DNA of 28,756 nucleotides from Myxococcales bacterium (GTDB lineage: Bacteria; Myxococcota_A; Polyangia; JAHFDS01). Of the stretch, positions 10,364 to 15,120 are shown piece after piece. Each line of letters begins with the position of its first letter. The stretch's first letter is position 1. Location: NCBI GenBank assembly GCA_023248855.1, contig JAHFDS010000057.1:1-28756 (forward strand), given 5' to 3'. The notes under the pieces were generated by a model, which was given only the letters and a program-made list of their open reading frames with translations, did not search any database and was not told the DNA's origin. The translations under genes were made by a program, and so were the position numbers.

Positions 10364-11251
10364 GTGGCTGTAGCCTTCGCTTTTCACATCCGCAAGGGCG
10401 GCAACGAGTGCGAGATCGCGCTGGTCGGGGACATCAGCGAGCACACGCGCCTCGACGAGGTGGTGAGCATGCTGCTGCGCGACGGCGGACCCGGCAAGCA
10501 GATCACGCTCGATTGCGGCGAGCTGCGCCGGCTCAACTCGTTTGGTTGCCGAAGCTGGACGCAGTTCCTCCAGGAGATCGGCAAGCACACCAAGCGCGTC
10601 GCGATTCGCCGGCTGACGCCGACGCTGGTGCAGCAGGCCAACATGGTCACCGACTTCCTCGGGAGCGCAGTCGTCGAGAGCTACTACGCGCCCTACGTGT
10701 GCTCGCGCTGCGACGCCGAGCACCTCTACCTCGCGCGCGGACGGCAGCTGCCCGAGGAGCTCGACTGCCCCGGTTGCCGGCTGCGAACCATGAGGTTCGA
10801 TGGTGACGCGAGCCTCTACCAGACGTTCCTGCTGAGCGCACCGGGCGACGGCCGGCTGCGCGTGCTGCTCGTGGACGACGAGGGCTTCTCGCGCAGCATG
10901 TTCCGCCTGGGGTTGCGCACGCGCTTCGAGATCGACGTCGTCGAGGGCTACCAGCAGGCGGTCGATGCCATCCGCCAGCGCGAGTACGACGTCGTCGTGT
11001 CGGATTACCGCATGCCCGGCCAGCACGGCGGCGACCTGCTCGGCGTGGCCATGCGCTGGCTGCCGAGCTCGCTGCGGATCCTCCTCACCGCCTTCCCGCC
11101 CGAGGATCTCGAGCAGCTGCAGCAGGCGGGCGTGATCCATGCGGTGATGCACAAGCCGGCCTCACCAGCAGAGGTCGAGGCCCGGGTGCGCGAGGAGATC
11201 GATCGGCGGGGGCTCGGCAGAGCGCGGGGAGATGCGCCGGTACGGACGTAA
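10364..11251 (+). CDS. Hybrid regulator: N-terminal STAS-like (anti-sigma-antagonist-like) domain, then a CxxC...CxxC zinc ribbon, then a C-terminal receiver (REC) domain.
   Basis: STAS-like ITLDCGELRRLNSFGCRSWTQFLQEI; zinc ribbon CSRCDAEH...CPGCR; REC domain RVLLVDDEGFSRSMF...YDVVVSDYRMPGQHGGDLL. GTG start at 10364; the true start is uncertain. Confidence 0.55.
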   Translation: MAVAFAFHIRKGGNECEIALVGDISEHTRLDEVVSMLLRDGGPGKQITLDCGELRRLNSFGCRSWTQFLQEIGKHTKRVAIRRLTPTLVQQANMVTDFLGSAVVESYYAPYVCSRCDAEHLYLARGRQLPEELDCPGCRLRTMRFDGDASLYQTFLLSAPGDGRLRVLLVDDEGFSRSMFRLGLRTRFEIDVVEGYQQAVDAIRQREYDVVVSDYRMPGQHGGDLLGVAMRWLPSSLRILLTAFPPEDLEQLQQAGVIHAVMHKPASPAEVEARVREEIDRRGLGRARGDAPVRT

Positions 11252-11276
11252 GCCGTCACGCGCCGGCGCATCGGGC

Positions 11277-13112
11277 ATGGCGGTCGCGCGCCAGAGCGTC
11301 GTGCGGCGCATGGCGGTCTTCGTGCTGGTGCTGTTCGCCGTTCCGGCGGTGCTCACGTACCTGGCGTTCGAGCGCTCGGTCAAGAGCGTCGCCGAGATCG
11401 AACGCCACACCTCGCACAACGCCGACACGGTCAGAAACAGCCTGCAGACCGCCTACGGCGCGCTGCACGGCCTCGGCCTGACGGATGCCAAGCGCCAGCT
11501 CTCGGGCGTCGCGCGCAGCCTCGAGTACGCGATGCGCATGCACCCCGAGGTGCTGGAGAAGCCCGAGGAGATGGCGTTCGACGTGGACCTCTACACGATC
11601 GTGAGGAACGAGCTCCTCGGCAAGTCGGGCTTCATCCTCGTCGTCGATCCGGCCAAGGGCAAGGTGCTGCTCGATCGCGAGACCGGCGGCTCGATCGCCG
11701 AACGCCATCCGGGCCTGCACACCGCGCTGCGGGAGACCAAGTACGTCGAGACGCTACGCGCGGAGCGCATCGCCCCGATCGCCGCGACGGGCCTGGCGGG
11801 GTGGCGGCGCATCTTCACGTCCGAGCAGCCGCCGACCGGCGCGTTGCCGGCGGGAAGCTGGCTCATCACCCCGCTGCGCGCGTCCAACAACATCGCGATC
11901 GCCGGCTTCATGCCGCACGATGGCCTGTTCGAGAAGGTGGAGGCCGAGGTCAAGACCGCGACGACAGGCATCGACCACAACCTGAGCGAGGTGCAGACCG
12001 GTCTGGCCGGCCTGCGCAGCACCATGAAGGTCACCCTCGCGGTGATCGGGGCGGTGGCGGTCGCCGCGTTCTTCCTGGTCGCGATCTACGCCCGGCGGCG
12101 CCTGGTCCAGCCGGTCCAGAAGCTGACGTCGCTCGCGTTCGCGGTGCAAAAAGGCGATCTCGCGATCCGCGCGACGCCTGAAGGCGAAGACGAGATCTCG
12201 ATCCTCGGGCGCGCCTTCAACGTCATGCTCGAGCGGGTCAACCGTCACATCGAGGAGCTACGCGCGGCGCAGCAACAGCTCGTCGTGGCGGGCAAGATGG
12301 TAGCCGTCGGTACGCTCGCGGCCGGCGTCTCACACGAGATCAACAACGCGGTGGCGTTCGTGCACGGGCACGTGCCGATCCTCCGCGACATGCTCCAGAC
12401 CTACCAGAGCCTCATCCAGGAGCTCGCAGAGCTGTGCGAGCACAATGGCTTCGCCGAGCAGGCGGCGGCGATCCGCGCGGCGCACGACCTCGACCAGATC
12501 GACGCGGATCTGCCGGGCGTGCTCGACGCGATCGAGGAGGGCTCGCGACGGGCCAAGGCGATCGTGCGGGACCTCAAGACCTTCTCACAGTCGGACGATG
12601 TGGAGCGGCGACGCGCAGACATCCGAGAGTGCCTGGAGAGCACGGTGCGGCTCGTCGAGGGCACCGTCAGGCAGCGCGTGACCTTCGTGCGCCAGTACGA
12701 GGAAGGCGTGCCGACGATCGAGTGCTACCCGCGCCTGCTCAACCAGGTGTTTCTGAACATCATCAAGAACGCGACCGAGGTGCTCACCGGCAAGGGGCAC
12801 GTCTGGGTGTCGCTGCGGTCGATGCCCGACGGGGTCGAGGTGCGGCTGCGTGACGATGGACCGGGCATGCCGGCCGACGTCCGCGAGCGCATCTTCGAGC
12901 CTTTCTTCACCACCAAGCCGGTCGGCCAGGGGACCGGGCTCGGCCTCGCGGTGAGCCACGGCATCATCGCCCGTCACGGCGGCAAGCTCGAGTGCGTGCC
13001 CCCCGAGTCGGGTGGGACCGAGTTCGTGATCTTCCTGCCCGAGAAGCTACCGCCTGCCGACGGGCAGAGCGCTGCGCCCGAATCCACGTCCATGCCGTCG
13101 GTGGCTGCGTAA
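11277..13112 (+). CDS. Sensor histidine kinase: periplasmic sensor region between two TM helices, then HAMP, HisKA and HATPase_c.
   Basis: HAMP segment LVQPVQKLTSLAFAVQKGDLAIR...ISILGRAFNVMLERV; H-box GVSHEINNAV; N/G boxes NIIKNATEV and GTGLGLAVSHGII. An alternative start at 11232 would overlap the upstream gene by 20 nt. Confidence 0.8.
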   Translation: MAVARQSVVRRMAVFVLVLFAVPAVLTYLAFERSVKSVAEIERHTSHNADTVRNSLQTAYGALHGLGLTDAKRQLSGVARSLEYAMRMHPEVLEKPEEMAFDVDLYTIVRNELLGKSGFILVVDPAKGKVLLDRETGGSIAERHPGLHTALRETKYVETLRAERIAPIAATGLAGWRRIFTSEQPPTGALPAGSWLITPLRASNNIAIAGFMPHDGLFEKVEAEVKTATTGIDHNLSEVQTGLAGLRSTMKVTLAVIGAVAVAAFFLVAIYARRRLVQPVQKLTSLAFAVQKGDLAIRATPEGEDEISILGRAFNVMLERVNRHIEELRAAQQQLVVAGKMVAVGTLAAGVSHEINNAVAFVHGHVPILRDMLQTYQSLIQELAELCEHNGFAEQAAAIRAAHDLDQIDADLPGVLDAIEEGSRRAKAIVRDLKTFSQSDDVERRRADIRECLESTVRLVEGTVRQRVTFVRQYEEGVPTIECYPRLLNQVFLNIIKNATEVLTGKGHVWVSLRSMPDGVEVRLRDDGPGMPADVRERIFEPFFTTKPVGQGTGLGLAVSHGIIARHGGKLECVPPESGGTEFVIFLPEKLPPADGQSAAPESTSMPSVAA

Positions 13113-13693: not shown

Positions 13694-13725
13694 GGGGCGC
13701 GCGCAGGGCAGGGGCCACTCTGACC

Positions 13726-15120
13726 GTGCCCACAGGCCGCATCCTCGTCATCGACGATGAGCCCTCGATGCGCGAGTTCCTGTGCATTTGCCTGCAGCGT
13801 GCGGGGCACACGGCCCGCGCGTGCCCGGGCGGCCGCGAGGGCCTCGCCGAGTATGACGCCGGAGAGTACGACGTCGTCCTGACCGACCTGCGGATGCAGG
13901 GAATGAGCGGGCTCGAGGTGCTCGAAGCGGTGCGAAAGCGCGCGCGCCTGACCGAGGTCGTGCTCATCACCGCCTACGCGACCACGGAGACCGCGATCGC
14001 GGCCATGAAGAGCGGCGCGTACGACTACCTGACCAAGCCCTTCAAGATCGACGAGGTCACGGTCGTCGTCGAGCGTGCGCTCGAGAAGGTGGCGCTGGTT
14101 CGCGACAACACCTTGTTGCGTGACGAGCTTGCCAAGAGCTTCAAGCTCGATCAGCTGGTGGGGCGCTCGCAGATGATGCAGCGCCTGTTCGAGCTCGTGC
14201 GTCGCGCGGCCCCGACGCGGTCGAACGTGCTGGTGCTCGGCGAGAGCGGCACCGGCAAGGAGCTGGTGGCGCGCGGCATCCACCACCTGTCGGGCCGCGC
14301 CGACAGGAGCTTCGTCGCGGTCAACTGCGGGGCCATCCCCGAGACGCTGCTCGAGAGCGAGCTGTTCGGGCACACGCGCGGGGCCTTCACCGGGGCGTCG
14401 CAGAACCGCGCCGGCCTGTTCGAGATGGCGCAGGGTGGGACGCTGTTTCTCGACGAGATCGGGGAGGTCTCGGCGGCGCTGCAGGTCAAGCTCCTGCGGG
14501 TCCTGCAGGAGCGGAAGCTGCGCCCGGTCGGAGGTGCCAGCGAGATCGACCTCGACGTGCGCGTGATCGCGGCGACCAACCGGGATCTCGAGACCGAGGT
14601 GCAGCAGGGGACCTTCCGGCAGGACCTCTTCTACCGTCTGAACGTCATCCAGGTGCGCGTGCCACCCCTGCGGGCGCGGCCCGAGGACATCCCGCTCCTG
14701 GTCGACCACTTCGTGCGTCGCTTCTGCGCGGAGGCGAGGCGCCCACCGCTCACGGTCGATCCGGCCGTGCTCGCGCGCCTGCGAGAGCACGACTTCCCCG
14801 GCAACGTCCGCGAGCTCGAAAACCTCATGGAGCGTGCCATCGCGCTCGCACCCACCGGTCGCCTGACCCTGGAGCTGCTTCCTGATCTGCGCTCGGGGCG
14901 AGGGATGCCGGTGGGGGCGGCCACGCGCATCCCGACCGAGGGCGTGGATCTGGAAGGCATTCTCGGCGAGGTGGAGCGCGAGCTGCTCCGTCAGGCGCTC
15001 GAGAAGGCCGGCGGAGTCCGCAAGGAGGCCGCGCGCCTGCTCGGCGTGACCTTCCGCTCGTTGCGGTATCGGCTGGCCAAGCACGGCATCGCGGACGCGG
15101 GCGACGACGAAGCCGGCTGA
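13726..15120 (+). CDS. Sigma-54-dependent Fis-family transcriptional activator (NtrC-type: REC + AAA+ sigma-54 interaction domain + HTH).
   Basis: REC domain ILVIDDE...VVLTDLRMQGMSG; Walker A GESGTGKE; GAFTGA motif (sigma-54 contact) at GAFTGASQ; arginine finger/ESELFGH; C-terminal Fis-type HTH RKEAARLLGVTFRSLRYRLAKHGI. GTG start. Confidence 0.9.
   Translation: MPTGRILVIDDEPSMREFLCICLQRAGHTARACPGGREGLAEYDAGEYDVVLTDLRMQGMSGLEVLEAVRKRARLTEVVLITAYATTETAIAAMKSGAYDYLTKPFKIDEVTVVVERALEKVALVRDNTLLRDELAKSFKLDQLVGRSQMMQRLFELVRRAAPTRSNVLVLGESGTGKELVARGIHHLSGRADRSFVAVNCGAIPETLLESELFGHTRGAFTGASQNRAGLFEMAQGGTLFLDEIGEVSAALQVKLLRVLQERKLRPVGGASEIDLDVRVIAATNRDLETEVQQGTFRQDLFYRLNVIQVRVPPLRARPEDIPLLVDHFVRRFCAEARRPPLTVDPAVLARLREHDFPGNVRELENLMERAIALAPTGRLTLELLPDLRSGRGMPVGAATRIPTEGVDLEGILGEVERELLRQALEKAGGVRKEAARLLGVTFRSLRYRLAKHGIADAGDDEAG

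Follow-up and report, generated by a model that had tools for sequence, protein, structure and literature searches.

We analysed a 28,756-nt stretch of DNA from an uncultured member of the Myxococcales (contig JAHFDS010000057.1 of assembly GCA_023248855.1, hereafter the window) and focused on a signalling block at 10364-15120 that encodes a response regulator (g1), a sensor histidine kinase (g2), a stand-alone receiver (g3), a tRNA-Leu(CAA) and a sigma-54 enhancer-binding response regulator (g4). Of the four proteins it is g1 that stands out, as it joins an N-terminal STAS domain and a predicted zinc ribbon to a C-terminal receiver; g2, g3 and g4 are typical representatives of their families. 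We propose, with a probability of about one half, that the block is a single two-component unit and that g1 is a phosphorylation-gated partner-binding regulator similar to PhyR. Two of the major mechanisms of bacterial signalling are partner switching via STAS proteins and phosphotransfer in two-component systems; a receiver fused to a STAS-type module would, if this reading is true, represent a compact and testable case in which a partner switch is gated by aspartate phosphorylation. In practice the finding is of modest consequence, as g1 is one lineage-specific regulator of an uncultured myxobacterium.

A STAS-zinc-ribbon module fused to a receiver

By exhaustive profile search, we found residues ~5-158 of g1 to occur as a unit in many further proteins. 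We aligned 37 of these STAS-zinc-ribbon (STAS-Zn) modules (A2), and this alignment is the basis of all family statistics given here, i.e. residue conservation and the numbers of Pfam and TIGR matches. The Pfam family STAS_2 matches residues 24-93 of g1 with 27.0 bits (E 5e-6), and at E<0.01 STAS_2 is detected in 18 and STAS in 12 of the 37 members. The model of g1 residues 1-160 built from the same alignment (predicted local distance difference test score, pLDDT, 94.8; predicted template modelling score, pTM, 0.88) displays the STAS core beta-beta-alpha-beta-alpha-beta-alpha. Its best Foldseek matches in the PDB are RsbV (6m36), SpoIIAA (1thn, 1tid, 1th8) and an anti-sigma antagonist of the myxobacterium Haliangium (4hyl), with template modelling (TM) scores of 0.68-0.77 (normalised to target length) at sequence identities of 11-19%. 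Similar proteins are recovered when the family profile is compared with antagonists in the PDB, namely TM1442 (1sbo, E 3.5e-5) and also RsbV (6m36) and SpoIIAA (1th8). On the evidence of the model and these matches, we regard the predicted STAS fold of the g1 N-terminus as established; an initial annotation of the window had already claimed such a fold, and structure prediction bears it out.

Four further strands (residues 107-145) are modelled after helix 3, just where hhalign ceases to align the module with SpoIIAA. This part contains the zinc-ribbon cysteines, arranged as C113-x2-C116 and C135-x2-C138, all four of which are invariant in 37/37 family members. At E<0.01, the Pfam family Zn_ribbon_8 is found in 11 and TIGR02605, the FmdB-type CxxC_CxxC family, in 13 of the 37 members; g1 itself has no match to either at this threshold. 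The pTM of 0.88 over 160 residues suggests that the STAS domain and the predicted zinc ribbon form one compact unit. Together they are a single conserved module of ~155 aa with a distribution of its own, which the initial annotation had missed. Neither Pfam nor NCBIfam has a model for the complete unit, and our finding points to a conserved STAS-Zn family that still lacks an entry in both collections. Full-text searches of the literature for STAS domains with a zinc ribbon, or for REC-STAS or STAS-REC fusions, gave nothing relevant. In the JGI pipeline, STAS-Zn proteins are labelled 'anti-anti-sigma regulatory factor / RPC12', with the ribbon annotated as 'RPC12/RpoP' or 'YacG-like'.

The module also carries a candidate regulatory serine. 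N58-S59-F60-G61 of g1 aligns on D57-S58-S59-G60 of Bacillus subtilis SpoIIAA (hhalign, E 5e-5, probability 67%; the SpoIIAA sequence used is identical to PDB 1auz), where S58 is the serine that is phosphorylated by SpoIIAB. S59 provides g1 with the Ser/Thr that motifs of the D-S-x-G type conserve where helix 2 begins. This residue is at least 90% conserved among the 37 family members, in which G22, G61 and W65 are, like the four cysteines, invariant. Judged by its aligned position at the regulatory phospho-serine of SpoIIAA and RsbV, S59 could possibly provide a second, serine-based input.

A linker of ~8 residues separates the module from the receiver, which is matched by Response_reg (Pfam) at residues 167-275 with 42.2 bits (cut-off 30.2). 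All catalytic residues are present (D171, D172, D214, T242 and K264). For comparison, the receivers of g3 and g4 reach 58.4 and 94.8 bits against the same cut-off, and the motifs read DD...SD(214)...T...K in g1, DD...SD(64)...S...K in g3 and DD...TD(54)...T...K in g4. The g1 receiver is 34% identical to g3 and 24% identical to the receiver of g4; because the receivers of g1 and g3 resemble each other more than that of g4, g1 and g3 look like added branches.

Distribution and gene neighbourhoods of the module

Full-length relatives of g1 form four clusters among 5.8 billion proteins (99, 86, 81 and 67% identity), and an exhaustive search of 1.84 billion representatives yielded one cluster below E 1e-30. 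Among the genomes of 185,579 species the architecture was detected in one, a metagenome-assembled genome (MAG) of an uncultured member of the Myxococcales with 87% identity. The initial annotation had called the architecture uncommon, and these counts confirm it: the fusion of STAS-Zn and receiver is rare and lineage-specific, having been found in a single narrow clade of uncultured Myxococcales, whereas the module itself is not. In fact, the STAS-Zn family comprises at least 289 clusters (90% identity) at E<=1e-5 in a word-indexed profile search. Most of them are stand-alone proteins of 150-165 aa from metagenomes of the Myxococcota/Bdellovibrionota type, and the few named sources are MAGs of Oligoflexia and Deltaproteobacteria.

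A census of architectures over 266 retrieved proteins gave 173 proteins with a single module, 19 with tandem modules and 4 in which the module is followed by a receiver, the latter all being close relatives of g1. One protein (P0020) has the reverse order, i.e. REC, STAS_2 and Zn_ribbon_8, and because of this reversed fusion, receiver and STAS-Zn must have been joined more than once. In three proteins of ~540-750 aa (P0012, P0014, P0008) two tandem STAS-Zn modules precede a membrane segment, with a PDZ-like C-terminus in P0012. This combination of tandem modules, membrane segment and PDZ is a second uncharacterised architecture of the module.

The neighbours of stand-alone STAS-Zn genes may be informative about the function of the family. 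A HAMP-SpoIIE (PP2C) phosphatase is encoded nearby in five loci, divergent and adjacent in four and in the same operon in the fifth (L014). The four divergent cases are Oligoflexia-type loci with STAS-Zn proteins of the 154-aa class; as they share the same synteny, they may represent one single lineage. A second class of 159-160 aa is nearer to g1 (<=38% identity); in three loci, the gene that comes right after it encodes a GGDEF protein. In L014, genes for a HAMP-PP2C phosphatase, a TPR protein, a periplasmic-binding-like protein, STAS-Zn and a PAS histidine kinase follow one another on one strand. A PP2C phosphatase adjoining a STAS protein with a conserved serine can be taken as a signature of partner switching and argues for this reading of the family. 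Thus the suggestion of the initial annotation that g1 couples phosphorylation to a partner-switching module appears reasonable, given the position of S59 and the PP2C genes beside stand-alone relatives.

The same data bear on two other functions of the module. On the one hand, STAS-Zn might recognise a small ligand or a nucleic acid, for which there are examples among both STAS domains and zinc ribbons, so that g1 would be a ligand- or DNA-binding regulator, and the 'RPC12/RpoP' and 'YacG-like' labels of the ribbon point in this direction. We consider this very unlikely, since it is anti-sigma antagonists that the module matches best in structure and in sequence, the position of the phospho-serine is conserved, and the genes nearby encode PP2C phosphatases and signalling enzymes rather than transporters. 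On the other hand, the module might bind the GHKL ATPase domain of g2 and tune the kinase, with the receiver acting as a tether or phosphate sink and without any partner-switching output. STAS antagonists do bind GHKL kinases (SpoIIAB, RsbW), complexes of this kind are the best structural matches of the module, and the GHKL ATPase domain of g2 is homologous to these RsbW/SpoIIAB targets. Furthermore, the 20-nt overlap of g1 and g2 suggests joint production in a fixed proportion, and the STAS-Zn gene of L014 is located directly upstream of its PAS histidine kinase. However, this is the one independent adjacency of STAS-Zn and a kinase, while PP2C and GGDEF neighbours are more frequent, and we hold a purely kinase-tuning role to be unlikely.

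Directly downstream of stand-alone STAS-Zn genes of the 154-aa class in the Oligoflexia-type loci, opposite the HAMP-PP2C gene, we also observed a conserved protein of 305-329 aa that belongs to no known family (L008, 5465-6448; L010, 4495-5484; L011, 4444-5358). It has a receiver-like N-terminus and SpoIIAB-like N-box and G2-box motifs (NAVDELIMNSIF, GAGIGL). As a candidate RsbW-like kinase it is no more than a lead, because Pfam, the PDB profile search and hhalign against SpoIIAB (E 0.25) were all non-significant. The window encodes no homologue of it, and a 307-aa protein of L014 is unrelated to it.

Organisation of the block and its two-component genes

The block extends exactly from the start of the first to the end of the last open reading frame (ORF), with all features on the plus strand (Table 1). 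The domain calls of the initial annotation for the four proteins and the tRNA proved correct when checked by Pfam, NCBIfam, ARAGORN, Rfam and motif searches. The G+C content of the window is ~70%; nevertheless, the genes are real and not chance ORFs of G/C-rich DNA, because the domain E-values range from 1e-10 to 1e-72 across the block and the five-gene order is also present in relatives at 81-87% protein identity.

Table 1. Features of the signalling block, in window coordinates
Feature	Position	Strand	Description
g1	10364..11251	+	295 aa response regulator; N-terminal STAS-zinc-ribbon, C-terminal receiver; Pfam STAS_2 and Response_reg
g1 STAS domain	10364..10663	+	~residues 1-100; N58-S59-F60-G61 motif at predicted start of helix 2
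g1 zinc-ribbon part	10664..10831	+	~residues 101-156; C113, C116, C135, C138
g1 receiver	10856..11218	+	~residues 165-285; predicted phosphoacceptor D214
g2	11232..13112	+	626 aa transmembrane HAMP histidine kinase; Pfam HAMP, HisKA, HATPase_c
g3	13176..13568	+	130 aa single-domain CheY-like receiver; predicted phosphoacceptor D64
tRNA-Leu(CAA)	13609..13693	+	ARAGORN; Rfam RF00005, 58.6 bits
g4	13726..15120	+	464 aa NtrC/AtoC-type sigma-54 enhancer-binding response regulator

The kinase g2 has all features of a class I transmembrane HAMP histidine kinase. Two hydrophobic segments (~27-46 and 266-288) enclose a loop of ~217 aa, followed by HAMP (288-337), an H-box (SHEINN) with H368, and the N, G1 and G2 boxes; HisKA is marginal (27.9 bits versus a cut-off of 26.9). 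The periplasmic sensor domain that had been assigned to the kinase corresponds to this extracytoplasmic loop, for which we found no Pfam match, even at E 10. Full-length homologues of g2 form one cluster, with none beyond the clade. Among NCBIfam models its kinase core scores best against AtoS, ZraS and NtrB-type kinases (AtoS 147.6, cut-off 646).

For g4, we detected a REC domain (D54), Sigma54_activat (243.5 bits), AAA_lid_14 and HTH_8 (54.2 bits) with Pfam. An intact Walker A motif (GESGTGKE) and GAFTGA at residue 219 complete the picture of an NtrC-type enhancer-binding protein. Its NCBIfam scores lie below the equivalog cut-offs in every case: 473.8 of 714 for AtoC, 419.7 of 558.6 for NtrC and 382.9 of 760 for ZraR.

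The gaps between g1 and g2, g2 and g3, g3 and the tRNA, and the tRNA and g4 are -20 (an overlap), 63, 40 and 32 nt, all on one strand, and the gene order including tRNA-Leu(CAA) is identical in all five related contigs. Most likely the block g1-g2-g3-tRNA-Leu-g4 is one transcription unit. With regard to its internal wiring, a gene with a histidine-kinase core lies directly upstream of the activator on the same strand in 31 of the 50 g4-homologue loci with enough upstream DNA (kinase end -120 to +300 nt from the activator start). Because of this arrangement, and because g2 scores best as AtoS/ZraS-like and g4 as AtoC/NtrC/ZraR-like, g2 and g4 are likely the core pair. A branched relay in which the one kinase g2 feeds all three receivers is plausible in view of the tight packing on the same strand and the usual upstream kinase of g4 homologues.

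The tRNA gene inside the block, at distances of 40 nt from g3 and 32 nt from g4, has the same position in L002, L003, L004 and L006; possibly it is transcribed together with its neighbours and then excised from the message. The codon UUG is rarely used for leucine in the genes of the block (1-3 times per gene). We also considered the tRNA as an integration site of a genomic island and rejected this, as there is no integrase, the composition is uniform and the position is kept in relatives.

The initial annotation had further proposed that the relay feeds a sigma-54 promoter, naming the major vault protein (MVP) locus and the pilD/PilZ intergenic region as speculative candidate targets. We found no support for a sigma-54 promoter in the window, and the link to MVP and PilZ is still purely speculative. 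Searching the whole window for TGGCAC-N5-TTGCW with up to 3 mismatches gave 74 matches, fewer than the 88.5 ± 9.1 expected, and in a scan demanding GG at -24 and GC at -12 the best sites were intragenic or wrongly oriented. Upstream of the genes at 15158-17020 and 17986-20709, no correctly oriented site retains GG at -24 together with GC at -12. A single candidate is both intergenic and correctly oriented (17080-17095 on the minus strand, TGGCCCGGCTCTTGAT, upstream of a 620-aa lipoprotein gene); it lacks the -12 GC and was rejected as a local sigma-54 target. The group of MVP-like and lipoprotein genes converges on g4, and nothing links g4 to these genes or to the PilZ gene (2037-2702).

Proposed mechanism and comparison with known systems

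In the mechanism we propose, the membrane kinase g2 would sense an extracytoplasmic signal, autophosphorylate on H368 and pass the phosphoryl group to D54 of g4, as the usual partner of this activator subfamily; probably it would also phosphorylate g3 (D64) and g1 (D214). Phosphorylated g4 is expected, from its family, to activate sigma-54 promoters elsewhere in the genome. By analogy with PhyR, phosphorylation of D214 would alter the availability of the STAS-Zn binding face of g1 to a partner encoded elsewhere. Candidates for this partner are a kinase of the RsbW type, an anti-sigma factor, a diguanylate cyclase and the ATPase domain of g2 itself. Additionally, S59 may contribute an input by serine phosphorylation, as its conservation and the PP2C neighbours of the stand-alone relatives would suggest. 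What we observed are the domain identities, the conserved residues, the tight packing of the genes and how rare the fusion is, and the fold is well modelled; the phosphotransfer pairs, the gating of g1 and the identity of its partner are inferred.

Several results weigh against a single unit with a PhyR-like g1. Concerning g1, the STAS_2 score of 27.0 bits is below the Pfam gathering score of 29.2 bits, the position of S59 relies on an hhalign match with a probability of 67%, and the model of full-length g1, built from five close sequences, is too poor (pLDDT 57.8) to judge contacts between module and receiver. As to possible partners and targets, a kinase of the RsbW/SpoIIAB type, a PP2C phosphatase, a sigma factor and a GGDEF protein are all missing among the Pfam-scanned ORFs of the window (28.7 kb), and the window offers no sigma-54 promoter for g4 to act on. 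Our scan of 9900-15400 for sigma-70 promoters and intrinsic terminators, which is uninformative in DNA of 70% G+C, detected no promoter and, as the only terminator-like hairpin, one that is intragenic and scores below the mean of the shuffles, so that it is the spacing of the genes that argues for a single transcript. Finally, the synteny is confined to close relatives (67-99% identity) and is therefore little proof of function, and in 80 metagenomic loci with g4 homologues (40-64% identity) neither STAS-Zn nor the g2 sensor nor tRNA-Leu is found nearby.

The last two points, together with the tRNA gene between g3 and g4, would also fit two independent neighbouring systems: g1, g2 and g3 would then be a kinase with two receivers and non-transcriptional outputs, and g4 an orphan activator served by another kinase and expressed with or after a housekeeping tRNA-Leu gene. 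Myxobacterial genomes indeed contain dozens of NtrC-type activators, many of them orphans. Yet the distances of 40 nt from g3 to the tRNA and especially of 32 nt from there to g4 leave little room for a separate promoter. Moreover, activators of the g4 type usually have their kinase upstream (31/50), and g2, with its AtoS/ZraS-like core, is the only kinase nearby. We therefore regard two separate systems as rather unlikely, and compare the single-unit proposal with known systems in the following.

In the general stress response of Alphaproteobacteria, which is controlled by the PhyR-NepR-sigma EcfG switch, the C-terminal receiver of PhyR unmasks an N-terminal binding domain. g1 shares with PhyR the order of output first and receiver last, and probably the gating logic by which a histidine kinase is coupled to partner switching. 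This likeness is functional and architectural: the N-terminus of PhyR is a degenerate extracytoplasmic function (ECF) sigma factor, whereas that of g1 consists of STAS and the predicted zinc ribbon, there is no homology outside the receiver, and no NepR-like or sigma gene was found near g1. From SpoIIAA and RsbV, on the other hand, g1 differs by the four-Cys ribbon after helix 3, the fused receiver and the Asn in place of Asp before the serine; the identity is 11-19%, and no cognate RsbW-type kinase or PP2C phosphatase is encoded in the window. The pair g2 and g4 is most similar to AtoS-AtoC and ZraS-ZraR, against which both the g2 core and g4 score best and whose order of kinase and activator is common for g4 homologues. 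It differs from them in scores far under the cut-offs, an unrelated g2 sensor, two extra receivers and the tRNA gene.

To our knowledge, receivers meet partner switching in the known systems via the phosphatase or the kinase, and never on the STAS protein itself. Examples of His-Asp signalling wired to a STAS protein are HptB-HsbR(PA3346)-HsbA(PA3347) of Pseudomonas aeruginosa and SypE-SypA of Vibrio fischeri (PMC8256260, PMC12826045) as well as HenR of Anabaena (PMC13555669), all of them partner-switching systems controlled by a response regulator. In these systems the receiver is part of the PP2C phosphatase, the RsbW-like kinase or both, with STAS on a protein of its own, whereas in g1 the receiver sits on the STAS module. 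The SiaABCD system of P. aeruginosa employs the STAS-like switch SiaC to activate the diguanylate cyclase SiaD; SiaC, however, is a DUF1987 protein without a zinc ribbon, and the window of g1 has no GGDEF gene. Going further, STAS-Zn might be an unrecognised family of partner-switching adaptors, widespread in Myxococcota and Bdellovibrionota, that works with PP2C phosphatases and controls GGDEF cyclases and GHKL-type kinases; the g1 fusion would then bring the switch directly under His-Asp control, as a STAS counterpart of PhyR in which phosphorylation at D214 and at S59 is integrated within a single protein. For the time being we consider this wider view doubtful.

Some features of the surrounding DNA complete the description of the window. 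Downstream of the MVP-like gene (17986-20709, minus strand; MVP_shoulder 88 bits, Vault_3 30 bits), and likewise on the minus strand, are a 190-aa ORF (17335-17907) and the gene for the 620-aa Gly/Ala-rich putative lipoprotein (15158-17020), both of which lack matches in Pfam and NCBIfam. A gene at 20636-21394 (plus strand), which diverges from the MVP-like gene, encodes a metallo-beta-lactamase-fold protein whose resemblance to the anti-Pycsar nuclease Apyc1 stays below threshold (42.8 bits versus a cut-off of 50). A 623-aa protein with two FHA domains and C-terminal TPR repeats (22468-24339, minus strand) is a phospho-threonine reader ~7 kb from the block; no Ser/Thr kinase gene was present among the window ORFs scanned with Pfam. 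On the other side, genes for UPF0158, DUF429 (minus strand) and a small TPR protein (8404-10302) are situated directly upstream of g1, with the same positions in all related contigs. Between these and the block, ~10-20 nt 5' of the GTG start of g1, the motif CGTG(A/G)TA(A/G)(A/G)GTAG (10340-10363, alignment A3) is kept in four relatives, while the intergenic DNA around it diverges among the same relatives; it could be a -10-like element or a translation signal.

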